This document shows positions 27,368-39,362 of a stretch of 64,000 nt of DNA, piece by piece. The notes under the pieces were generated by a model. The model saw nothing but the letters and a program-made list of their open reading frames with translations, searched no databases and was not told the DNA's origin. This stretch comes from an uncultured Sphingomonas sp. GTDB taxonomy: Bacteria > Pseudomonadota > Alphaproteobacteria > Sphingomonadales > Sphingomonadaceae. The translations under genes were made by a program, and so were the position numbers. Within the stretch, counting starts at the first letter, position 1. Each line of letters starts with the position of its first letter. Location: contig NZ_CAMLAC010000002.1 of NCBI RefSeq assembly GCF_946477935.1, positions 378-64,377 on the forward strand, in the 5' to 3' direction.

Positions 27368-27652
27368 TCAAGAGGAAGGCAACTCCCGCTGACTTTCGAG
27401 AAGCGCGAGCTGGGTCTGAATGGTGTGCAGCGCGGGTCGAACGACGTCCAGCAGTGCCGCCCCGGCAGGAGTGAGAGATAGCCGTCGGGTGGTCCGCTCA
27501 AGCAGCATAACCTTGTGCCGGCCTTCCAATTGCTGAACGGCCCGCGTCAGCGCCGATTGCGAAACGCCAAGCCGCGATGCGGCTTTCGTGAAGCTGCCCA
27601 TTTCAGCCACTGCGGCGAAGGCCACCAGATCGGCTAGGTCGTCTCTGGACAT
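27368..27652 (-). pseudogene. Truncated LysR-family regulator (HTH only, 94 aa)
   Basis: AFAAVAEMGSFTKAASRLGVSQSALTRAVQQLE...LLERTTRRLSLTPAG, then a stop where the effector domain should begin. Confidence 0.75.
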
Positions 27653-27904
27653 ACGCTAGAACCCGCCGACGGGAGAGGAGCGCGCCAAGCTGTCCACTGT
27701 CCTCTGCCTTCCTGTGCTGAGCAGCCAGTCGCTGCTCATAGGCAGAAGCGAGCGCGTCTCCTGCGTCGCGACGGTCCATCTTCTTAAGGCCTGACATCCA
27801 GCACGCTCACTCGCGAGCAGGTTGGCAGAGGCGCGCCGCCTTCGTTCACCGGGACAGGTGAATGCCCCGCACTGACAAATAGCCATGTCGCGGATCTCAA
27901 TCTA

Positions 27905-27955
27905 TATGCGTCACGCATACAGTTCGGGAACGCGGATGTCTATGCGTCACGCATA
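27905..27955. promoter_or_regulatory. Two copies of palindrome TATGCG-N3-CGCATA (27905-27919, 27941-27955)
   Basis: Both TATGCG-TCA-CGCATA, 36 bp apart, upstream of the YeeE/YedE gene. Confidence 0.8.
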
Positions 27956-28075
27956 TAATAGCAGAACTGATGCGCGTCGTTGCAACGGCCCTGCGCGCAA
28001 CGGGTGTGTCCGCGCCTCAGGCAATCACGCTTACCGGCTTCCCACGGTGCAAAATGCGCCGCCTGAACTGCGGGG

Positions 28076-29050
28076 TTGAGCACGATGCTGTCGTGGCTCG
28101 ATGTCGTTCTGAGTATGCTATCCTTCGGCTTCGGTTTCTCCGCTAATCAGGGGGGCACCTGTCTGGTCGCGGTCGCTGACGAGCTAGTCAGACGACGCCC
28201 TCCCAAAACTCTCATCGGACTTGTCGCAGCATCTGCGGCTGCCGGCCTTATAGCCGTGCCGCTCGCTTGGGCTGCGGTGATCGACGGACTATCGATCACC
28301 GCAGCCAGCATCCATGTTCCGCTCATGGTAGGTGCCGTTGCGTTCGGTATCGGAGCCCTCGTCAACGACACGTGCCTGTTGGGGTCGCTGGCTCGTTTAG
28401 GGGACGGCGAAATGCGGCTCTTGGCACTGCCCTTCGGATTAGCGGCCGGCATGCTGCTCATTGACCACGCGCGACTTGCTTCTGTCGCTACGTGGCCGAG
28501 CCCGCTTTCGACGCCAAGCCTGCTGGGTGCGGTTTGCCTGTTGAGCTTTTTGATCGTCCTGACGCTGGCATCCATCAAGCTAACGGCCACCGAGCCTCCG
28601 CTACCTAGGGGAAGATGGCCACTGGTATTGTCAATGCTGATCCTTGGAGCGACCGGCGGCGCGCTTTTTGCGCTGTCACCAACCTGGACACTCGCGCACC
28701 TGTTGCAGCACAGCCTTCTAGCCGGAGATATGCGCACCGGAATTGTCGCACTCCCGGCCGTTGCAGCATCGGTTGTCGGCGCATTCGCTGCGTCGATGTG
28801 GCAAGGCAATATGCGCCTTCAAACCCCTTCCACCCGTGACCTCTTTCGGACCTTTGGCGGCGGCCTCCTCATGGGGGTCGGGATCGCACTCATCCCCGGC
28901 GGAAACGACGGTTTGATCCTGTCGGCGATACCCGCGCTGTCGCCAGCCGGCTTCGCGGCTGTCCTTACGATGATCGCTACTATTCTGCTTGGTCTGATCG
29001 GACGCCGCCGACTGACCCGCGGCGGGCGCATCGATCCTCACCGAACATAG
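28076..29050 (+). CDS. YeeE/YedE-family (sulfur-compound transport) membrane protein
   Basis: Multi-TM; NQGGTCLV, FGIGALVNDTCLLGSL and GGLLMGVGIALIPGGNDG motifs. Confidence 0.75.
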   Translation: MSTMLSWLDVVLSMLSFGFGFSANQGGTCLVAVADELVRRRPPKTLIGLVAASAAAGLIAVPLAWAAVIDGLSITAASIHVPLMVGAVAFGIGALVNDTCLLGSLARLGDGEMRLLALPFGLAAGMLLIDHARLASVATWPSPLSTPSLLGAVCLLSFLIVLTLASIKLTATEPPLPRGRWPLVLSMLILGATGGALFALSPTWTLAHLLQHSLLAGDMRTGIVALPAVAASVVGAFAASMWQGNMRLQTPSTRDLFRTFGGGLLMGVGIALIPGGNDGLILSAIPALSPAGFAAVLTMIATILLGLIGRRRLTRGGRIDPHRT

Positions 29051-29478
29051 CTGCTGATCAAACTATAGGCCTTGGCCGGACCCGTCACGTCGATGATGAT
29101 CTCGAATGCGCCCGGCAGCGCAAGAGCGTAACGAACCTCGTACAGGTCGTCACCACAGTGGTGGACGTCGTCAGCTACCAGGCGTTCGCCGTCGGAGGCA
29201 TCGAACGTCAGGCGCACGAAGTCATTGCCTATCGTCGGCCCATCCGCAAACGCGACCGTGAAGCCTCTTTCGGAGGGCCGATAGGTGTAGCGCCGGTGAG
29301 ACGACAACTCGCGGCCGTCTCGCAATCTAAGCGTACCGCATTCCCGGTATGCGAAAATGCCGCCGAGTCCAGGCTCGAAGGTCGCCTTGCCGTGGAGCTG
29401 AGCGCCGGCACCTCTAATCTCTCGATCAAGCTGCCAGGCGCCGCTCAGGCTTCGAAGGAGGTTAGCCCCTTCAAGCAC
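29038..29478 (-). CDS. DUF6314-like protein
   Basis: GAWQLDREI...YRECGTL...YTY...F.DG...HHCGDDLYEVRY...GPAKAYSLISSY. Confidence 0.65.
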   Translation of the reverse strand: MLEGANLLRSLSGAWQLDREIRGAGAQLHGKATFEPGLGGIFAYRECGTLRLRDGRELSSHRRYTYRPSERGFTVAFADGPTIGNDFVRLTFDASDGERLVADDVHHCGDDLYEVRYALALPGAFEIIIDVTGPAKAYSLISSYVR

Positions 29479-29555
29479 GGCGAACCGTCATCCTGCGTGC
29501 TGTACACGCGCTGACGCGCCGCAGGAATATCTCCTGAAGCGCGAGCACGCGTCCG

Positions 29556-30041
29556 TTACGCCAGATGCGCCGGTCGCCGCTCGACCGAATTGAAGAACAG
29601 AACGAGCGACGCTGCGAGGAGGACGGCGTCCTTCAGCAGGAACTGACCCGGCGCCGCCGAAATCGCGGGGAATCCTCCCGCGCTGGCTTCCGCGACGCCC
29701 GGTGTGGTCACGAAGAATGTCAGCGTGATCAGGTAGGTGGCAACTGACATCAGCGCACCCAGCGCCGAGAAGACCGGCCGAAACGCGCCGATGGCGAGAG
29801 CCGCAGCCGTCGAGAGCTCGATGACCCCGATGAAGTAGCTCTGCCCTTGCGTTCCGAACATGCCGAGCCAGCTCATCAGCGGGCTATGCCCGATAAACGG
29901 AGCGATCCCGTCAGCTTCGTACATCGTGAACTTCATGGCACCGAACCATAGAAAGACCAAGACGAGCGCCCATCTCAGCAGCGCCAAGTCCTTTCTGTCT
30001 TGCTCGGCGACATGAAAGCGGTAGCGGTTCAGAAACGGCAT
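29556..30041 (-). CDS. DUF417/YkgB (RclC-like) inner-membrane protein
   Basis: LRWALVLVFLWFGAMKFTMYEADGIAPFIGHSPLMSWL...IGVIE...TLTFFVTTPG...GQFLLKD, the RclC/YkgB signature. Confidence 0.85.
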   Translation of the reverse strand: MPFLNRYRFHVAEQDRKDLALLRWALVLVFLWFGAMKFTMYEADGIAPFIGHSPLMSWLGMFGTQGQSYFIGVIELSTAAALAIGAFRPVFSALGALMSVATYLITLTFFVTTPGVAEASAGGFPAISAAPGQFLLKDAVLLAASLVLFFNSVERRPAHLA

Positions 30042-30089
30042 CTGGAACTCCTCAATGAAGATGATGTCGGTTGAGTAGGGTCGAGTGGC

Positions 30090-30599
30090 TCAATGGCGCC
30101 GCGCGCCCATCGGGCAGCCAAGACATTTTGCCTGATCGCAGAAGCGGCACGTTGGCAGCGCGCTCTGCGGATCATCGAGCAGCGAAGTGAGAATGGTGTC
30201 GGCGATCCGCTCCAAGACTGCGCGGTCGTTGTCAGGAACCCGAACCAACAAACCGGAGACCGCAGCATTTCTCAGACCGAGAAGTTTGGTTCGCTCGGCC
30301 TGACCCCGCCGTGTGAGCGTGATATGGGCGACGCGGCGGTCGGACGGCGACTGTGACTTTCCCACAAGGCCTTGATCATCCAGCCGCTCGACCACACGCA
30401 CCGTTCCGGCGTGCGAGAGGCGAAGGATTCGGCTGATCTGATCGATCGACATCCCCGGCTCGTGACCAATTGCGATCAGCGCGGCCGCAGTTTCCCCGCC
30501 CGCAGTGAACGCTTCGGCGATAGCAATCCGTACCCGATCGGACACGGCCTGAGAAAGCGCGCCGAAAACGTTGATCAGTCGATCTGAGGGCTCGTCCAT
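30090..30599 (-). CDS. MarR-family regulator with C-terminal C-x2-C-x4-C-x2-C motif (MarR1)
   Basis: LSHAGTVRVVERLDDQGLV...DRRVAHITLT wHTH; tail CRFCDQAKCLGCP; start uncertain (30599-30632). Confidence 0.85.
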   Translation of the reverse strand: MDEPSDRLINVFGALSQAVSDRVRIAIAEAFTAGGETAAALIAIGHEPGMSIDQISRILRLSHAGTVRVVERLDDQGLVGKSQSPSDRRVAHITLTRRGQAERTKLLGLRNAAVSGLLVRVPDNDRAVLERIADTILTSLLDDPQSALPTCRFCDQAKCLGCPMGARRH

Positions 30600-30622
30600 C
30601 ATCAGCATGACTCGATGGAATA

Positions 30623-30637
30623 TATGCGTCACGCATA
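30623..30637. promoter_or_regulatory. TATGCG-TCA-CGCATA palindrome upstream of MarR1
   Basis: Exact copy, 23 bp from the predicted start. Confidence 0.8.
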
Positions 30638-30790
30638 CACCTTCAATCGGCTTATGTCGAGTTAGAACCGGGAATTGTTGCGCCGGTCGTCCGGATCACC
30701 TCTTGTCGATGAGACTTTGACGATCGTGAGCCCGGCGCAGACAAGCCGCTCGGACGGATATATTCCGAGCGCCGGCGTCTCGCCGTATAG

Positions 30791-31807
30791 TCAGCTGTCC
30801 AATTTGCCCATCTCGAGTGCTGTATCGGCCATGCGGGTCGCAAAGCTCCACTCGTTGTCATACCAAGCAAGCACGCGAACCATTCGCCGGTCGACAACAT
30901 CGGTCTGAGGGAGTGCGACGATCGACGACTCGGTCCGATGGCTCAAATCGATCGATACCAGCGGTTCGGCGGTGACTGCCAGCACGCCCTGCATTGATCC
31001 ATCGGCAGCTTGCCGGATGGCTTCGTTCACTTCGTCAACGGTGACGTCGCGCATGGCGGACACAGCCAGGTCGATGACCGACACGTTGGGAGTGGGAACC
31101 CGGATCGACGATCCGTGCAGCTTGCCCTTCAACTCCGGCAATACGCGGCCAATGGCGTTCGCCGCGCCCGTCGACGTCGGGATCATCGAGAGGGCAGCCG
31201 CGCGGCCGCGATATGGGTCCGAGTGGACGGCATCGAGCGTCGGTTGGTCCCCGGTGTAGGCGTGAACAGTCGTCATGTAACCGCGCTCGATACCGAACAG
31301 ATCGTTCAGCACCTTCGCCACGGGTGCGAGCACGTTTGTCGTGCAGGAGCCGTTCGAAACGATCACATCTTCGCTCGTCAGCGTATCGTGATTGACCTTG
31401 AAGACGATCGTCTTGTCGGCGCCCTCGCTGGGCGCGGAGACGAGGACGCGCTTTGCGCCGGCGCGAAGGTGCGCGCTCGCCTTGTCCTTCGAGGTGAAGA
31501 ATCCAGAGCACTCCAGCGCTATGTCGACCCCGCACCGCTGATGAGGCAAGTCCGCAGGGTCGCGCTCCGTAGTGACTTCGATTTTTCCGGAGCCGACGTC
31601 GATCCAGTCGGTACCGATATCGATTTCACCCGGGAAGGGACCGTGAATCGAATCGTATTTGAGAAGGTGGGCCAGGGTAGCGACTGACGCGAGGTCGTTG
31701 ATCGCCACCACCTGGATATCCCGACGGCCGAGCTCGACCATCGAGCGCAACGTCAGACGACCGATGCGCCCGAAACCGTTGATCGCGACCCTGACCGTCA
31801 TGCGCAT
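30791..31807 (-). CDS. gap: Type I glyceraldehyde-3-phosphate dehydrogenase
   Basis: VAINGFGRIGR, SNGSCTTNVLAP, TVHAYTGDQ, AWYDNEW. Confidence 0.95.
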   Translation of the reverse strand: MRMTVRVAINGFGRIGRLTLRSMVELGRRDIQVVAINDLASVATLAHLLKYDSIHGPFPGEIDIGTDWIDVGSGKIEVTTERDPADLPHQRCGVDIALECSGFFTSKDKASAHLRAGAKRVLVSAPSEGADKTIVFKVNHDTLTSEDVIVSNGSCTTNVLAPVAKVLNDLFGIERGYMTTVHAYTGDQPTLDAVHSDPYRGRAAALSMIPTSTGAANAIGRVLPELKGKLHGSSIRVPTPNVSVIDLAVSAMRDVTVDEVNEAIRQAADGSMQGVLAVTAEPLVSIDLSHRTESSIVALPQTDVVDRRMVRVLAWYDNEWSFATRMADTALEMGKLDS

Positions 31808-31897
31808 TTCCTTCAGTTGCTGAGAAATGGTCGCTGGCAGCGGGCACCTGCTCGCTACCGTCTGGAAGAGGTTTGAGACTCAAGCCGACGCAATATA

Positions 31898-31912
31898 TAT
31901 GCGCGGCGCATA
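31898..31912. promoter_or_regulatory. TATGCG-CGG-CGCATA palindrome between divergent gap and rpiA
   Basis: Exact arms. Confidence 0.75.
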
Positions 31913-32053
31913 GACCTAATCGTCGGTTCCTGGCAGGTCAACATGGTGAGGCGATCGAGCGCAGCAGGCGGGTGCCCGTCAGCTCATTCGCTACCGTCGA
32001 GGATAGCAGGTACCCCGCTGAGTGAGGACCCGAGGGCAAGACGGGAGACGTGA

Positions 32054-32743
32054 GTGGTGTCTGACCTTGAAGCAGAAAAGGTTCTCGCGGCCAGACGAGC
32101 GGTCGATGAAGTCCAGGATGGCATGCTTGTTGGATTAGGGACTGGCAGCACGGCTAACTACGCAGTTAGATGCCTGGCCGAGCGGATTGCCAGCGGTCTC
32201 CGCATCACAGCGGTGGCAACGTCGCGAATGACCGAAGTCTTGGCCCGCGAACTGGCCATACCGCTGACATCCATGGAAGGTGTCAGCTCAATCGACCTCA
32301 CGATCGACGGCGCTGACGAGATCGATCACCGCTTGCAGGCGATCAAGGGCGGTGGGGGGGCCTTGCTGCGGGAAAAGGTCATTGCTGCCGCGTCAGCTCG
32401 CGTCATAGCCGTGGTCGATTCCAGCAAGTTCGTGACGCAGCTGGGCCGCTTCCCGTTACCGATCGAGGCCTTTCCATTCGCCACCGCTTTCGTCGGGGCG
32501 CGCCTCGCTGATCTTGGAGGCCCGGTGTCTCTGCGAATGGAGGACGGCCGTCCGTTCGTGACCGATCAGGGCAACCACATTCTGGACGTTGCGCTTGGAT
32601 CTATTGCGGATAGCCAGCAGACCGCGCTCGCGATTTCAGGCATTCCGGGCGTCGCCGGGCACGGCCTCTTCCTCTCTGAGATCGACACCGTCGTTATTGC
32701 CCACGGCGGCACGGTCGAGCTCCGGCACGCGGAGCGGTCGTGA
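32054..32743 (+). CDS. rpiA: Ribose-5-phosphate isomerase A
   Basis: VGLGTGST, DLTIDGADE, IKGGGGALLREK. Confidence 0.95.
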   Translation: MVSDLEAEKVLAARRAVDEVQDGMLVGLGTGSTANYAVRCLAERIASGLRITAVATSRMTEVLARELAIPLTSMEGVSSIDLTIDGADEIDHRLQAIKGGGGALLREKVIAAASARVIAVVDSSKFVTQLGRFPLPIEAFPFATAFVGARLADLGGPVSLRMEDGRPFVTDQGNHILDVALGSIADSQQTALAISGIPGVAGHGLFLSEIDTVVIAHGGTVELRHAERS

Positions 32744-32981
32744 TGTCCATCCAGTCGCTTGCGTCGATCGATTGCACCGTCACGTCGGCGATGAGATGGA
32801 GGGAAACCACACGAGATCTAGCGTTCACCTAGCTGTCATAGCCGCCGCGTATCATGCTATTCGACAGCACGTCGCAAATTCTGATGAGTCAGACGGTTGC
32901 CCACAGGGCGTAAGAGGCTGATAATACAGCACTTACTCGCATTCGAGCCGTCCGTGTCAAACCACGCCGAAGCTTGCTGTC

Positions 32982-32996
32982 TATGCGCCACGCACA
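32982..32996. promoter_or_regulatory. TATGCG-CCA-CGCACA (1 mismatch) upstream of MarR2
   Basis: 13 bp before the predicted start at 33010. Confidence 0.65.
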
Positions 32997-33009
32997 TATA
33001 ACGGCGCGA

Positions 33010-33534
33010 ATGGATGGACCTCGAGACCGTAACGTGTTCGGGGCGTTCGCACTCATGATCGGCGAGGACATCGTTCGCGCTAGTTCATCGCGGGCGCCTG
33101 AAGAAGGACCTGCCGCTTCGGCGTTGGCGCTGATTGCGCACAAGCCCGGGCTTTCGGTGAGAATGCTCGCGATTGGCGTAGGCTTGTCGCACGCGGCGGC
33201 GGTTCGCCTTGCAGATCGCCTTACTATTCAAGGGCTGATCGAGAGCCGGGCGAGTTCGTCCGACGGGCGGGTCCGCTCCCTGTATCTGACATCGGCCGGT
33301 CAGACGGCCAGCGCCGCGGTCCTAGCCGCTAGAGATGAGGTAATCGCGGAAGGGTTGTCGATCCTCAACAAGGGCGAAATGAAGTTCCTGGCCGACATTG
33401 CCGAGCGCGTATTACGCGACCGTTTGGAGAACCTCGAGCATTCTTACCGCATCTGCCGCCTGTGCTGCTACGAAGGCTGTACCGATTGTCCTATCGACGC
33501 CGAGCTGCACGAGCGGGGGCGGGACCGCGAGTGA
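33010..33534 (+). CDS. MarR-family regulator with C-terminal C-x2-C-x4-C-x2-C motif (MarR2)
   Basis: NVFGAF, LSHAAAVRLADRL, DGRVRSLYLT; tail CRLCCYEGCTDCP; paralog of MarR1; start uncertain (32974-33010). Confidence 0.85.
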   Translation: MDGPRDRNVFGAFALMIGEDIVRASSSRAPEEGPAASALALIAHKPGLSVRMLAIGVGLSHAAAVRLADRLTIQGLIESRASSSDGRVRSLYLTSAGQTASAAVLAARDEVIAEGLSILNKGEMKFLADIAERVLRDRLENLEHSYRICRLCCYEGCTDCPIDAELHERGRDRE

Positions 33535-33563
33535 GGGCCACATCCATCCGGGTATGAGCCGGA

Positions 33564-34349
33564 TTAGTGTTGCGCGATCAGGTAAGCGGCGAGGAAGCCA
33601 AGAACCGTGATCAGGCCTATGAAGGGAGGCGCATTCTCGAATGCTTCTGGGATCATGGCCTCCGCCAGCATGGCTAGTACGGCCCCCGCCGCGAACAGGA
33701 GGATCGCCGGCTCCTGCGCCGATGCTGAACCGAGCAGAAAATTCCCGGCGGCGGCAGCGATCCCTATGAGCAGCGGTATCCCGATCCAAATCGTGTAGAC
33801 GTACCGACGCGACCGGCCGGCCTGCTTCATCCCCGAGGTGCTCGACAGTCCCTGAGGCACGTTAGCTAGAAAGAAGCCCGCGATCACCGCCAAGCTGATC
33901 GCGCCGCCGCCGGCGACTGACATCCCGATCACCAGGGCCTCCGGTATTCCGTCAAGCACACTGCCGACCGCGATCGCAGACCCACTCCCGTGATGCTCTG
34001 CCTCGTTCGGTTGCTCGACGCATTCGCCGCAGCGCTTCCGGTTCTTCGCGCCGCGGCGGGCCAGATACCAGTTTATGCTGCTGAAAACCGCCGCCCCTGC
34101 TGGCAAGGCGACGGTTGGCCATATATCCGCCCCCGCCGCGTCCGGTCGGACGACGAGTTCGGTGGCTATCACGGCAAACAGGACGCCGCCGCCAAAGCCC
34201 ATGACGGCTGCAATCATCCGGTGGCTGAGCTTGCCGAAGAAAGCGTCCGCAACGATCGCGCCCAGAAGCAACCCGCTACCGGATACCAGACCCCACAGAC
34301 CGGCAACAAGGAACTCAGGGATCGGGGAAGCAGGAGAGCCCATAGCCAC
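33564..34349 (-). CDS. ZIP-family metal transporter
   Basis: LDGIPEALVIG, NVPQGLSS, GAVLAMLAEAMIPEAF; loop motif RKRCGEC. Confidence 0.8.
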   Translation of the reverse strand: MAMGSPASPIPEFLVAGLWGLVSGSGLLLGAIVADAFFGKLSHRMIAAVMGFGGGVLFAVIATELVVRPDAAGADIWPTVALPAGAAVFSSINWYLARRGAKNRKRCGECVEQPNEAEHHGSGSAIAVGSVLDGIPEALVIGMSVAGGGAISLAVIAGFFLANVPQGLSSTSGMKQAGRSRRYVYTIWIGIPLLIGIAAAAGNFLLGSASAQEPAILLFAAGAVLAMLAEAMIPEAFENAPPFIGLITVLGFLAAYLIAQH

Positions 34350-34444
34350 TCAGCCTCTTTCAGATGATGTCGACACGCAGGATCGCTCGGTTGCGCATTC
34401 ACAAACGACCGGACGCGCGGGCGACTGGCGGCATCGCCACATCC

Positions 34445-35023
34445 TCACCGCTGTCGATCCAGGCGCCAATTGGGGCGCGCGAAGTGGCAGCTATAACCCC
34501 GTGGGTGGCGAACGAGGTACTTCTGATGCTCCGGCTCCGCTTCCCAGAAAGGCTCTTCGGGATTGATTTCGGATAAGACTGGCCCTGGCCATAGACCTGA
34601 CGCTTCGATCTCCTCGATCGTCGCCAAGGCAACTTCCATCTGACGCTTGTCGGTATAGAAAATAGCGGAGCGGTAGCTCGGACCGACGTCGCTACCTTGT
34701 TGCTCGTAGGTTGTGGGATCGTGGATCTGAAAGAAGAGCTCCAGCAAAGTTCGATAGCTCAGAAGGGCCGGGTCGAAGACCACTTCTACCGCCTCCGCGT
34801 GCCCATGATGATCATCGTAGGTCGGCGCCGCCATCTCACCGCCGATATATCCGACGCGCGTCGAGATGACCCCCCGCTTGCGACGCAGCAGATCCTCCAA
34901 ACCCCAGAAGCAGCCGCCGGCGAGTATCGCTCGCTCCGTACGGCTCGCCCCATCTCCGGCAACCCTGTCGCTTTCGGATCGCTCACTTACTGATCGATCC
35001 TGATTGTCGCCACCGGATGCCAT
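34445..35023 (-). CDS. msrA: Peptide-methionine (S)-S-oxide reductase, copy 1
   Basis: [45 protein letters not shown]. Confidence 0.93.
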
Positions 35024-35025
35024 GC

Positions 35026-36273
35026 TTACGCGGCCGACCGGGGGTCGGCTTCGCGGCTGGGCGAACCAACGAGATCGGTCTGAACATCGGATCCGCGAAT
35101 GAGCGTCAGATCGACGGGACAGCGATCGGCGATCTCAAGAATCCGTGCGCGCTGTTCCTCATCGAGAGGCCCCTCAAGGACGATCGTGCGCGTGAACCTA
35201 TCTGGCGGAACCATGTCCGCCACCTTCTTGTGCTCGACCCTCGTGCTCGCTCGTTCGAGCGGAAAGCCCTTCCGGTTAGCATAGAGGCGCATCGTCATTA
35301 CCGTGCAGGCAGCAAGGCCCGCCGAGACCAGTTCATATGGCGACAGACCGCTCCCTAACCCGCCGACTGAGGCCGGTTCGTCCGAGAAGATCGTGTGCTT
35401 GCCGCTGCGGACCCTAAGCTGAAACTTGCCTGCCAGCGTCTCGATGGCCTCGACCCCATCCGCTGCCTCAACCTGGGGAAGATCGGCTACAAGGGGCGGC
35501 AGGTAGCGATTTGCCCAGGTTGCCACCATTGCTGAAACGAAGTTTGCGTTGGCGGCATCGGCGATGAGATGATCTGCCATGTCGAGCGAAACAAAGCTCT
35601 TGGGGTGGCGAGCAGCGACGAAGATGCGCGACGCATGCTCAATCCCGACCACCTGATCGATAGGGGAGTGCAGGACGAGCAAGGGACGACGCAGCGTCGC
35701 CACCGCCTTCTCCACATCCACCTCCGCAACGGCGTCGATGAAGCTGCGACGAATGAGAAAGGGCCGCCCGGCGATTTCGACCGATGCTTCTCCGTCGCGC
35801 CTGACCGTGTCGAGATCGCTGGCATTGAAGACCTTCAGGATATGCTGGAGCTCCGCCGGAGCGCCGATAGTCGCCACGGCGACGATATCCGGGAGATCGG
35901 CGGCAGCCACCAAAGCGGCGGTTCCACCAAGGCTGTGCCCAATAAGGAGGGAAGGGGTCATTCCCGCGGCCGTCATCGCGTTCGCCGCTGATTTGAGATC
36001 CGTAACGTCCGAGGCGAAACTGACTGCCTCGCCTTGGGCGCTGCCTATCCCAGTTCCAGCAAAGTCGAATCGCAGCACGCCGATGCCCGCCCGCGAAAGC
36101 GCACGGGAAATATGGACAGCCGCTCGGCTGTCTTTCCCGCACGTGAAGCAATGGGCGAAGATCGCCCATCCTCGGGGGGTGCCTTCCGGCGGCTCCAGGA
36201 GGGCGGAAAGAGGCCGGCCCTCCTCGTTTTGGAACGTGAACGATGTGCCCGGCACGCCGATACCTCCCAGCAT
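35026..36273 (-). CDS. Bifunctional alpha/beta hydrolase-OsmC protein
   Basis: [14 protein letters not shown] nucleophile elbow, OsmC part LAACTVMT...IADRCPV. Confidence 0.9.
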
Positions 36274-36392
36274 CTATGGGCACCGATCGACGATCTCTGC
36301 CAGCCCGCGAGAGGGGTGATCGTCACCACCTCGCGTCTCACTGGGCCGCACAGCATCGGCATCGGCACCTGTCTCCACAGGCATCCTTTTTA

Positions 36393-36447
36393 TATGCGTC
36401 ACGCATATAGACAAGCCCCTACCGCCAAACTATATGCGTCGCGCATA
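36393..36447. promoter_or_regulatory. Two TATGCG-N3-CGCATA palindromes (36393-36407, 36433-36447) between divergent osmC-hydrolase and lysR
   Basis: Exact arms, 40 bp apart. Confidence 0.8.
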
Positions 36448-36517: not shown

Positions 36518-37393
36518 ATGGAACTCAATCAGGTCAGCTATTTCATAAACTTGGCTGCGACGCTGAACTTTACCGAGGCAGCTCGGCTGAGTGGCGTATC
36601 GCAGCCAAGCCTGACCCGCGCTATCCGCCGACTAGAAGAGGAACTAGGCGGTGCGCTGATCTATCGGGACGGAAAGAACAGCCGCCTCACCGGACTGGGC
36701 CAGGATGTCGAAGCGGAGTTCCGGCGAATGCTCTTCGCCCTGAAAAGCGTGCGCGATCATTCCGAGAACTGGACGATGGGGCGGCACCGGGTGCTGGACA
36801 TCGCCGTGGCGCCAACCGTCAGTCCCAAAGCGTTTGGGACCTTCTTCGAAGGTGCCCTGGATAAGGTGCCCTCAATCGAGATCAGGCTGCACTCGCTCCA
36901 GTCGAGCGAGGACACGTCGGAAGTGTTATCAGGCAAATATCACGCTTGTATCCTGCCGCGGGAAATCCGCCCGGACCGTAAGCTCGATATCCGTCCTCTC
37001 TTTCGAGAGCGCTTTGTACTCGCCTGCGCGGTCGAGCACCCATTGGCGAACGCAGATATTGTGCGCGGTGAGGACTTGTCGAGATATCCGGTCGTCGATC
37101 GACTCAAATGCGAGTTTCGTGACCAGATAGTGGAACACTTTGCGCGGCGCGACGTGGTCATGCGCCCACGCTTCCGTTCCGAGCGAGAAGACTGGGTTCA
37201 TCGAATCGTCGCCGAAGGTCGCGCGATATGCATCTTGCCGGAGCGATCGGCGGCAGACACTGGTCTCGTAACTCGACCGATCGAAGGTTTCACCTTGGAA
37301 CGAGAAGTGGTGATCGCGACTGTTTCCGGTTCGACGGCTCCGGTCGAGATCCGGAAGGTAGCGCAACTCGCGGCCCGACACGAATGGCAGTGA
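36518..37393 (+). CDS. LysR-family regulator, OxyR-like Cys198
   Basis: MELNQVSYF...NFTEAA...SQPSLTRAIRRLEEELG; effector domain DRLKCEFRDQ with Cys at residue 198. Confidence 0.9.
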   Translation: MELNQVSYFINLAATLNFTEAARLSGVSQPSLTRAIRRLEEELGGALIYRDGKNSRLTGLGQDVEAEFRRMLFALKSVRDHSENWTMGRHRVLDIAVAPTVSPKAFGTFFEGALDKVPSIEIRLHSLQSSEDTSEVLSGKYHACILPREIRPDRKLDIRPLFRERFVLACAVEHPLANADIVRGEDLSRYPVVDRLKCEFRDQIVEHFARRDVVMRPRFRSEREDWVHRIVAEGRAICILPERSAADTGLVTRPIEGFTLEREVVIATVSGSTAPVEIRKVAQLAARHEWQ

Positions 37394-37540: not shown

Positions 37541-37984
37541 ATGAAGTTCGAGAAGACACAGGCGGCTATTGACCGCCTCACCCCAGAGCAACGTCGCATT
37601 ACCCAGGAACACGGCACCGAGCGGGCGTTCACGGGTGAATATAACGACAACAAGGAGCCGGGCATTTACGTCGATGTCGTCTCGGGCGAGCCGCTTTTCG
37701 CGTCGACCGATAAGTTCGAATCTCGCTCCGGCTGGCCGAGTTTCACCAAGCCAATCGTCCCGGCGCATATCAACGAGGTGCGAGACAGCTCGCACGGGAT
37801 GGTCCGGACGGAAGTTCGGTCGGTGCACGGTGACAGCCATCTCGGCCACGTGTTTCCGGACGGTCCGTCCGACCGCGGCGGCCTGCGCTACTGCATCAAC
37901 TCGGCAGCGCTCCGCTTCATCCCGCGCGATGAGATGGAGGCGGAAGGCTACGGCGAATATCTCGACCAGGTAGAGGAGGCTTAA
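37541..37984 (+). CDS. msrB: Peptide-methionine (R)-S-oxide reductase
   Basis: GTERAF, GWPSF, HLGHVF.DGP, RYCINS; single Cys. Confidence 0.95.
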
Positions 37985-37985
37985 C

Positions 37986-38525
37986 ATGCAACAGCGCGCT
38001 GTTCTCGCTGGCGGCTGCTTTTGGGGCATGCAGGATCTGATCCGCAAGAAACCCGGCATCATCTCGACCCGCGTGGGCTATACCGGCGGCGACGTCCCCA
38101 ATGCCACCTATCGCAATCATGGCACCCACGCCGAGGGCATCGAAATCATCTTCGACCCCGAGGTGACGAGCTATCGAAACATCCTGGAATACTTTTTCCA
38201 GATCCACGATCCGACCACGAAGGACCGTCAGGGCAACGATCGCGGTCTCTCCTACCGGTCAGGCATCTACTACGTCGACGAGGAGCAGAAGCGCATCGCC
38301 GAAGATACGATCGCCGACGTGGATGCATCGGGGTTGTGGAACGGCAAGGTCGTCACCGAGGTCAAGCCCGTGGGCGATTTCTGGGAGGCCGAGCCGGAGC
38401 ATCAGGACTATCTCGAGAAGCGTCCGGGTGGCTACACCTGTCACTTCGAGCGAAAGGACTGGGTGCTTCCGAAGCGCCAGGATGCCGGCGGTTCGCAAGC
38501 TGCGGTCGCTGCACGAGCTGAATAG
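37986..38525 (+). CDS. msrA: Peptide-methionine (S)-S-oxide reductase, copy 2
   Basis: [39 protein letters not shown]. Confidence 0.95.
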
Positions 38526-38657
38526 GACGACACTCTTACGCGCCGCCGCCGACTGTGGTCGCTCACTTCGTGACCGCATCGCCATGCGATGCGGTCCTCG
38601 AGTTGGAGACTGACCAGGCACCCATTCGGACCAAGCCTGCCCGAGGATCGCAGCCGT

Positions 38658-39362
38658 ATGCCAGACTTCTCCTCGTTCCCGATCGCGCAACGATGGCCAG
38701 CGGCACATCCGGAGCGGGTGCAGCTTTACGCCGCACCGACGCCGAACGGCGTGAAGGTGTCGATCATGCTCGAAGAGACCGGGCTCGCCTACGAGCCGCA
38801 TTTCGTTGATATCTCGAAGAACGAGTCGAAGGACCCGGCCTTCGTATCGCTTAATCCGAACGGGCGCATACCTGCGATCATCGACCCCCTTGGTCCGGGC
38901 GGCACGCCGATCGGCGTCTGGGAATCCGGGGCTATTCTGGTCTATCTGGCGGATAAGACCGGCCAGTTCATGCCGATCGCTCCGGCTGCGCGCTACGAGA
39001 CGCTGAGTTGGGTATTCTTTCAGATGTCGGCGATCGGGCCCATGTTCGGTCAGTTGGGCTTCTTCCTGCGATGGGGCGGCAAGGACTTCGAGGATAAACG
39101 CCCCCAGCATCGCTTCGCCGATGAATCCAAGCGACTGCTTGGGATCGTCGATCGTCAGCTCGATGGACGCGACTGGATCACCGGCGAATATTCGATCGCC
39201 GACATCGCTACGCTCGGCTGGGTGAACGCGCTCGTTACCTCATATGACGCCGGCGACCTTCTCGGACTGAAGGATTTCTCGAACATAGCCGCCTGGCTCG
39301 AACGCGGTCTCGCGCGACCGGCAGTAAGGCGCGGGCTGCTCGTTCCGGCCAGAACTATATGA
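38658..39362 (+). CDS. Glutathione S-transferase family, YfcG/YghU-like disulfide oxidoreductase
   Basis: TPNGVKVSIMLEE, NPNGRIPAI, ESGAILVYL, YSIADIA. Confidence 0.9.
   Translation: MPDFSSFPIAQRWPAAHPERVQLYAAPTPNGVKVSIMLEETGLAYEPHFVDISKNESKDPAFVSLNPNGRIPAIIDPLGPGGTPIGVWESGAILVYLADKTGQFMPIAPAARYETLSWVFFQMSAIGPMFGQLGFFLRWGGKDFEDKRPQHRFADESKRLLGIVDRQLDGRDWITGEYSIADIATLGWVNALVTSYDAGDLLGLKDFSNIAAWLERGLARPAVRRGLLVPARTI

Follow-up and report, generated by a model that had tools for sequence, protein, structure and literature searches.

Two MarR paralogues with a four-cysteine tail and a shared palindrome outline a predicted oxidant-defence regulon on a mobile island of Sphingomonas

The stretch analysed here, called the window throughout, comprises 64,000 nucleotides (nt) of an uncultured Sphingomonas sp. 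(GCF_946477935.1, contig NZ_CAMLAC010000002.1, 378-64,377 of the forward strand). Its central 8.5 kb (27905-36447) carries seven copies of the palindrome TATGCG-N3-CGCATA together with two paralogous MarR-type regulators, MarR1 and MarR2, each ending in a tail of four closely spaced cysteines. On the whole it seems probable, with appreciable doubt, that MarR1 and MarR2 repress a mobile oxidant-defence module through this palindrome, with a redox-labile cofactor held by the four cysteines as the sensor. The genes form two minus-strand operons, marR1-DUF417-DUF6314 and one of the hydrolase-OsmC fusion, msrA and a ZIP-like transporter gene, besides several genes read singly or divergently. Genes and predicted operators lie as follows, the operators being given without strand.

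27905..27919, no strand: predicted operator copy 1, 5' of the yeeE-like gene; TATGCGTCACGCATA, its centre 36 bp from that of copy 2
27941..27955, no strand: predicted operator copy 2, 5' of the yeeE-like gene; its right arm merges into a perfect TATAAT
28076..29050, plus strand: YeeE/YedE-like sulphur-transport membrane protein, divergent; PF04143 8.8e-23, Sulf_transp Pfam 81.8 bits
29038..29478, minus strand: DUF6314 protein, last gene of the marR1 operon; PF19834 1.2e-28
29556..30041, minus strand: DUF417 inner-membrane protein, RclC/RcrB homologue; PF04224 1.5e-31, 109.8 bits
30090..30608, minus strand: MarR1, winged-helix repressor by homology; PF12802/PF01047, tail C154-R-F-C157-x4-C162-x2-C165-P
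30623..30637, no strand: predicted marR1 operator, inside promoter TTGAAG-16-TATATT, overlapping the -10 box
30791..31807, minus strand: type I glyceraldehyde-3-phosphate dehydrogenase (GAPDH; gap), active site CTTNV
31898..31912, no strand: predicted operator between the divergent gap and rpiA genes; TATATT follows on the gap strand
32054..32743, plus strand: ribose-5-phosphate isomerase A (rpiA); NF001924 2.5e-77
32982..32996, no strand: predicted marR2 operator, a weaker variant; TATGCGCCACGCACA, inside promoter TTGCTG-17-TATAAC
33010..33534, plus strand: MarR2, MarR1 paralogue at 34% identity; tail CRLCCYEGCTDCP
33564..34349, minus strand: ZIP-like zinc transporter, a membrane protein; named after the RefSeq entry of an 87% identical orthologue, with no Pfam match
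34445..35023, minus strand: MsrA, methionine-S-sulfoxide reductase; PF01625 2.2e-53
35026..36273, minus strand: alpha/beta-hydrolase fused to an OsmC-like peroxiredoxin domain; domain search and RefSeq name
36393..36407, no strand: predicted osmC-hydrolase/lysR operator copy 1; TATAAA follows on the osmC strand
36433..36447, no strand: predicted osmC-hydrolase/lysR operator copy 2, 40 bp from copy 1
36518..37393, plus strand: LysR-type regulator, 3' of the paired operators; msrB, msrA and GST genes follow at 37541-39362 (plus strand)

The operator pattern TATGCGNNNCGCATA (TATGCG-N3-CGCATA), searched with at most one mismatch, gave 7 matches in the window, those at 27905, 27941, 30623, 31898, 36393 and 36433 being perfect and that at 32982 carrying one mismatch; dinucleotide-preserving shuffles of the window averaged 0.15 matches and did not exceed 1. 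When the 3.93-Mb assembly was scanned, all perfect copies (6/6) and the one-mismatch marR2 copy were found within 27905-36447, and the regulon therefore appears confined to the island. Six other one-mismatch matches were found genome-wide versus 5 for a reversed-pattern control, and since the control gives a similar count they are taken as chance. The first-pass annotation, made from the letters alone, had listed the same seven copies, had noticed none outside the 8.5 kb and had placed all of them between genes or at gene starts. The search returned exactly these seven with zero further matches in the 64 kb, and every site proved to be intergenic or just 5' of a true start codon; the open reading frames that appear to open inside sites 30623 and 32982 do so at upstream GTG/TTG codons, which homologues do not use.

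Conservation extends beyond the searched letters. Among 84 distinct 39-mers, drawn from the window and 69 related loci, a T at -1 and an A at +17 were each present in 90% of the sites, and the centre was a symmetric Y-S-R. The full element is thus a 19-bp palindrome, T-a-TATGCG-ysr-CGCATA-t-A, with the sequence TATATGCGTCACGCATATA. Paired copies recur in related loci with a spacing of 36-40 bp, which suggests two dimers per promoter.

The promoters of both marR genes are built around the palindrome. On the minus strand the marR1 promoter reads TTGAAG-gtg-TATGCGTGACGCATA-TATT, in which a -35 box is followed by a 16-nt spacer occupied by the operator and then by the -10 box TATATT, made of the operator's final two bases plus TATT, with the first ATG 10 nt further on. 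The marR2 promoter is alike, with TTGCTG, a 17-nt operator-containing spacer and TATAAC, its ATG standing 7 nt after the -10 box; it is identical base for base across every island type and in the IncU plasmid pFBAOT6, where its weak asymmetric operator TATGC[G/T]...CGCACA, with the GCACA arm, is likewise kept. On the strand of their downstream gene, the other operators abut TATAAT (yeeE-like), TATATT (gap) and TATAAA (osmC-hydrolase), and the gap/rpiA operator is kept in island types A and B. A simple sigma-70 scan returned only 2 promoter-like sites in the region, not above chance; the marR1 match is used here nonetheless because its -35/operator/-10 layout recurs at marR2 and in orthologues. 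An operator over the -10 box is the classical repressor arrangement, and by base order the placement at marR1 and marR2 is such a repressor layout. From the short distances to the ATG, the marR mRNAs are expected to have little or no leader.

A survey restricted to one genome per species yielded 67 loci encoding MarR1 or MarR2 relatives, and in almost all of them, at protein identities as low as 58%, the palindrome was found 25-60 bp 5' of marR; it also stands before the target genes that it precedes in the window. Since many of these loci are copies of one mobile island, they were collapsed to 22 lineages at 90% MarR identity. TATGC-N5-GCATA then occurred within -120..+10 of the marR start in 14/22 lineages, versus 23 matches in the 238 kb elsewhere in the same loci, most of which are other regulon sites. 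The Cys tail was present in 19 of the 22, the three exceptions being one frameshifted copy and two copies cut by contig ends, and a DUF417 gene, the commonest neighbour, adjoined marR in 12. The recognition helix, LSH(A/P)G(T/A)VR(L/V)V(E/D)RL, is nearly constant across all homologues, both window paralogues included. Furthermore, pFBAOT6 keeps the operators while its MarR2-type protein is the sole MarR there with an intact tail; therefore one paralogue is probably sufficient, and both paralogues probably read the same site. More distant homologues carry variant palindromes that keep the outer half-site: TATGCT-N3-AGCATA twice, 36 bp apart, between marR and DUF417 in Mesorhizobium, TATGCATGA-G-TCATGCATA in Cupriavidus (L046-L048), and further variants in Bradyrhizobiaceae, an Acetobacteraceae metagenome-assembled genome and Salinisphaera. 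Taken together, the palindrome is very probably the operator of the MarR1/MarR2 repressors, as predicted by this comparison.

The scan 5' of homologous marR genes had been suggested by the first-pass annotation as a check on its regulon, and the recurrence in 14 of 22 lineages bears it out, together with the -10 overlap, the conserved helix and the persistence of the palindrome at loci in which no relative of the island LysR turned up, described below; the part of that claim concerning redox sensing remains conjectural. Its proposal that a MarR protein takes the place of RclR in controlling a DUF417 gene finds support in the conserved marR-DUF417 linkage.

Two observations on operator form may be added. 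A second class of operator, TATGCATGA-G-TCATGCATA or TGTGAGTCACA (loci L046-L048, L040 and L072), sets the GCATA half-sites 4 bp wider apart; with a near-identical recognition helix, either the dimer geometry must therefore differ or the contacts must be made differently. In Pseudomonas sp. R3-56 (L071, 8130-8230), an operator of the window type, ATGCGTCACGCATATAAT, and a second dyad stand before the DUF417 gene, 2 kb from a marR with the Cys4 tail, and genes for a LysR protein, an FMN reductase and an aldo-keto reductase lie between the two.

MarR1 and MarR2 have 172 and 174 residues, with cysteines at the C-terminus only. MarR1 ends in CRFCDQAKCLGCP and MarR2 in CRLCCYEGCTDCP, as had first been read from the window, and the four cysteines of MarR1 all lie in C154-R-F-C157-DQAK-C162-LG-C165-P, none preceding residue 154. 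MarR2 and its orthologues have a fifth cysteine within the knot (CRLCCYEGC), replaced by N in Mesorhizobium relatives, which may tune reactivity relative to MarR1. Both are members of the MarR family by PF12802 (38.9 bits for MarR1 and 35.3 for MarR2, cut-off 27). For MarR1 with its family alignment, AlphaFold2 gave a mean predicted local distance difference test (pLDDT) score of 94, with the tail at 85-88 and ordered directly after the last dimerisation helix, and the order of elements, a1-a2-a3-a4-b-b-a5-a6, is that of the six-helix, two-strand MarR fold. All top Foldseek matches were MarR, SlyA, MexR or FabT proteins (probability 1.00, TM 0.6-0.85); against the PDB only ordinary MarRs came up, with 125-165 columns of the 172-residue model aligned and nothing more closely related among them.

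The tail marks a large group of proteins. A profile search of 1.84 billion representatives found at least 181 clusters (50% identity) at E <= 1e-30, and CxxC-x4-CxxCP was present in 63/148 of the top representatives, nearly all others showing the motif with a last loop of 4-6 residues; four Cys were seen in almost all of the best 150. When 101 diverse members, picked because they have the tail, were aligned, N13, the four Cys and the following Pro proved invariant, and the Arg after the first Cys was kept in >90%. A word-indexed search gave at least 2998 clusters at E <= 1e-20, whose named members belong to Cyanobacteria and Alpha-, Beta- and Gammaproteobacteria, and the group was found in 6/301 genomes of an even sample of the phylum. 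No NCBIfam model is specific to MarRs with this Cys4 tail, and the NCBIfam OhrR, SlyA and MprA models score far below cut-off (OhrR 22.7 bits vs 200). The subfamily implied by the first-pass annotation is therefore real and large by profile search and alignment: judged by sequence, CR[LF]C[DE]x3C-x(2-6)-CP after helix a6 defines a large, unnamed MarR subfamily, to which both window proteins belong. Five of its members from the random phylum sample had no DUF417 gene within 1.5 kb and had different palindromes; the DUF417 link is limited to branches related to MarR1/MarR2 and does not hold for the whole subfamily. Two distant Cys4-tail MarRs of that sample (L072, 424-1422; L074, 2098-3000) are divergently paired with haloalkane-dehalogenase-like alpha/beta hydrolases, so the subfamily controls more than one kind of target.

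Domain searches upheld the target genes first assigned, namely yeeE, marR1-DUF417-DUF6314, gap, rpiA, marR2, osmC-msrA and lysR, and qualified one name. The gene first called rclC encodes a DUF417 member at 109.8 bits, but its score against the RclC equivalog NF040476 is 94.7 bits, far from the cut-off of 275, and the protein is by these scores an RclC homologue, not an orthologue. The YeeE-like protein scores 18.7-28.3 bits with the NCBIfam TsuA/YedE equivalogs, whose cut-offs are 400-645, and falls outside them. The island GAPDH has SNGSCTTNVLAP and lacks the second active-site cysteine of the usual CTTNC; an oxidant-tolerant spare isoenzyme under direct operator control would fit this sequence. 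On the 5' side of the yeeE operators (window 27368-27900) only a 94-residue helix-turn-helix fragment of a LysR protein is found, and related islands (e.g. locus L014, 8504-10153) have at its position a third MarR paralogue, MarR3, and a full-length LysR protein. MarR3 keeps the recognition helix LSHAGTVR but has no Cys tail; the pFBAOT6 copy ends in CHLC and then diverges.

By its distribution the module is horizontally mobile. A Sphingomonas paucimobilis megaplasmid matches 75% of the module's length at 83% identity, and near-identical copies of the island were found in Roseomonas, Xanthobacter, Sphingobium, Aurantimonas, Methylobacterium, Agrobacterium and Brevundimonas. The marR2 gene matches 148 PLSDB plasmids (about 76% nucleotide identity), mostly from Citrobacter, Klebsiella and Enterobacter, 110 of them conjugative. 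pFBAOT6 (L068), the only plasmid inspected for the full module, carries a rearranged version in the order marR3, yeeE, DUF6314, DUF417, marR2, adh, msrA, osmC-hydrolase, lysR, msrB, msrA, GST, corA. Among the Sphingopyxis H-series isolates (L011, L026-L033), some have the whole island and others a minimal marR-DUF417 pair with one autoregulatory operator; these isolates probably come from chloraminated drinking-water systems, which would link them to chlorine exposure.

A model can be proposed in which, in unstressed cells, MarR dimers would occupy operators overlapping the -10 boxes of five promoter regions and thereby would repress the genes for DUF417, DUF6314, the YeeE-like protein, GAPDH, RpiA, the hydrolase-OsmC fusion, MsrA, the ZIP-like transporter, both MarRs and the LysR protein. 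The four cysteines would hold a redox-labile cofactor, and the reduced holo-repressor would be the form that binds DNA. Hypochlorous acid (HOCl), chloramine, superoxide or hydrogen peroxide (H2O2) would destroy or oxidise the Cys site; the damaged site would shift the neighbouring dimerisation helices, DNA would be released and the module derepressed. Binding, direction of control, cofactor and inducer are here inferred from sequence. The direction proposed follows from the regulon, whose content amounts to repair or replacement of oxidant-sensitive targets (MsrA, an OsmC-type peroxidase domain, GAPDH, RpiA and DUF417); within such an oxidant response RpiA presumably serves entry into the pentose-phosphate pathway. 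RcrB, an E. coli relative with the same DUF417 domain, confers HOCl resistance (PMC9600549; bioRxiv 10.64898/2026.03.12.711259). In the predicted structure the Cys knot is joined to the dimer-interface helix. Its compact, invariant Cys4-Pro arrangement with a variable last loop looks, in sequence, like a metal or cluster site over a simple disulfide pair; a Cys-Xn-Cys-Pro ending resembles ferredoxin motifs, and a Zn(Cys)4 site of the zinc-knuckle kind would fit just as well sterically. As to the occupant of the site, an iron-sulfur (Fe-S) cluster or iron is rated at a little under even chances and zinc as doubtful, while a tail without metal is thought unlikely.

In the last case, the two CxxC pairs would form intramolecular or inter-subunit disulfides upon oxidation and so release the repressor. 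CxxC pairs form disulfides readily, the regulon is one of oxidant repair, and most characterised redox MarRs (OhrR, MexR, MosR, HypS) rely on plain thiols (PMC11672702). Two cysteines would suffice for such a switch, however, and what is found are four invariant Cys and a Pro in a knot of 12-16 residues whose last loop is variable, as is common in metal and cluster sites. AlphaFold2 models the knot as ordered, and the four-Cys MarR PqrR of P. aeruginosa, discussed below, reportedly contains iron; the disulfide switch is accordingly regarded as unlikely. It is less likely still that the Cys4 site is a purely structural zinc and that the true signal is a small ligand, such as a quinone, an aldehyde or a chlorinated compound, held where MarRs usually bind ligands, in the pocket that separates the dimerisation domain from the DNA-binding domain. 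MarRs act through a ligand pocket by default, those found by Foldseek bind ligands, and distant members adjoin haloalkane-dehalogenase-like hydrolases instead of oxidant-repair genes; yet the Cys4 tail is the sole universally conserved feature that separates the subfamily from other MarRs, and the regulon concerns repair of protein oxidation (Msr, OsmC), not catabolism or efflux.

Reactive sulfur species, persulfide or polysulfide, could also be the signal, with the module serving sulfane-sulfur homeostasis around the YeeE-like transporter. The Sulf_transp/YeeE-like gene does stand behind two operators, and MarR proteins are reported as sulfane-sulfur sensors (PMC11211675), but the conserved core partner is DUF417 and not YeeE, no persulfide dioxygenase, rhodanese or SQR gene was found in the regulon by gene annotation and domain searches, and the YeeE-like protein lies far below the TsuA cut-offs, which makes this reading quite improbable. 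Sensing apart, the palindrome might be bound by the adjacent LysR-type regulator or another factor instead of the MarRs. Two operator copies lie directly 5' of lysR, and LysR regulators bind dyads in divergent promoter regions. The palindrome nevertheless follows marR into Sphingopyxis, Mesorhizobium, Cupriavidus and Pseudomonas loci in which a search of 6 kb showed no relative of the island LysR, and this speaks against binding by a LysR protein. At both marR genes the palindrome covers part of the -10 box, and MarR dimers typically bind 6-N3-6 dyads of 15-19 bp, so that a LysR binder has very little probability. Several points do weigh against redox-controlled repression by MarR1 and MarR2 as proposed. 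The exact 15-mer is missing from eight of the 22 lineages, which have differently spaced palindromes instead, so the half-site rules are only partly understood; the tail-less MarR3 has the same recognition helix, which implies binding independent of the tail in some islands; and a 2024 metallostasis review has Zn-sensing (Zn-uptake) MarRs as the only characterised metalloregulators of the superfamily (PMC11672702), from which it follows that the Cys4 subfamily is at best barely recognised and has no well-established precedent.

In its widest form the proposal is that of an unrecognised MarR class, thousands strong in Alpha-, Beta- and Gammaproteobacteria and Cyanobacteria, with an Fe-S/Zn Cys4 oxidant sensor and a mobile plasmid branch that controls a DUF417 defence and so links disinfectant tolerance to plasmid spread; we hold this whole to be possible, at somewhat less than even odds. 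MarR regulators are reviewed solely as ligand-, thiol- or Zn-uptake sensors (PMC11672702), and a family-wide Cys4 cofactor site, if true, would be a new sensing module in a regulator family that ranks among the largest in bacteria, and one for which an operator and two paralogues are already at hand for experiments. The DUF417 proteins RclC and RcrB are at present the least understood chlorine-resistance factors, and a conserved MarR-DUF417 pair in many phyla would give a second, independent handle on their function and inducers. The regulon would be of a plug-and-play kind with its own sensors and operators, carried by conjugative elements in Alphaproteobacteria from drinking water and hospital sinks, by pFBAOT6 and by about 150 plasmids, the majority from clinical Enterobacteriaceae and Aeromonas, a link spanning water systems and hospital plumbing. 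Since the circuit is mobile, it could explain disinfectant or host-oxidant tolerance travelling with resistance plasmids.

To our knowledge, PqrR of Pseudomonas aeruginosa (Rungrassamee et al. 2009) is the only earlier instance of a MarR with four conserved cysteines at the C-terminus. It is reportedly an iron-containing MarR-family repressor of pqrABC, responsive to paraquat and H2O2, which occupies two separate sites in its target promoter and no longer binds DNA once oxidised. By this description, its architecture and paired sites match those of MarR1 and MarR2. We know of no operator consensus, mobile regulon or family survey described in the PqrR work. The PqrR targets are probably not DUF417 genes; a control search found DUF417 in E. 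coli and Bacteroides only among 14 reference genomes, which possibly did not include P. aeruginosa. Pseudomonas and Stutzerimonas members, with no clear P. aeruginosa PqrR, were found among the named matches of two homology searches and one cluster look-up. The idea of a redox-sensing four-Cys MarR is thus not wholly new, and it belongs among the redox-sensing MarR repressors.

SoxR offers a parallel in another fold: it is a MerR-family [2Fe-2S] redox sensor with a CX2CXCX5C motif near the C-terminus of the dimer and a small oxidant-defence regulon. Its four cysteines lie within about 12 residues, and the window tail is similarly compact; in contrast, SoxR has the MerR fold, activates through DNA distortion and spaces its cysteines otherwise. 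Within the MarR type, ChlR (Synechocystis Sll1512, Synechococcus 7002) is a [4Fe-4S] oxygen sensor, a winged-helix protein in which a Cys-Xn-Cys-Pro motif holds the Fe-S cluster (PMC4500134), and the window tails also end in Cys-Xn-Cys-Pro. ChlR, however, is an HxlR/OhrR-like low-oxygen activator of 135 residues with an N-terminal Cys-X4-6-Cys-Pro, candidate ligands Cys18/Cys25 and one cluster per dimer (PMC4500134), whereas the window MarRs have 172-174 residues, four C-terminal Cys per monomer and a repressor-type operator layout. ChlR was rejected as a family prototype, being short with N-terminal cysteines where the window MarRs have C-terminal ones only. With OhrR, MexR and MosR, as with AdcR and ZitR, the window proteins share the fold, the dimer and repression, here predicted, via palindromes over promoters. 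OhrR-type sensors use a reactive N-terminal Cys in helix a1, and MarR1 has no Cys outside its tail; AdcR and ZitR bind Zn via His/Glu sites and are co-repressed by Zn (PMC11672702), while the window tail is Cys4.

At the level of the island, the conjugative ICE-beta-ox of Legionella pneumophila, with msrA/msrB cargo and resistance to bleach and H2O2 (PMC4010831), is by analogy a functional counterpart of the module, at that level only; it differs in that no MarR/operator circuit is described for it (PMC4010831). DUF417 genes, finally, have known controllers in E. coli: RclR (AraC-type) for RclC and RcrR (TetR-type) for RcrB, both oxidant-sensing towards HOCl or hypothiocyanous acid (HOSCN) (PMC9600549; bioRxiv 10.64898/2026.03.12.711259). 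RclR is an activator and RcrR a repressor, and both are thiol switches, whereas the predicted controller in the window is a MarR with a Cys4 tail. The predicted window regulon is also larger than RclR-rclABC or RcrR-rcrARB, adding Msr, OsmC, GAPDH, RpiA and the YeeE-like protein. The MarR partner is in this sense a third regulatory solution for DUF417, after RclR and RcrR.

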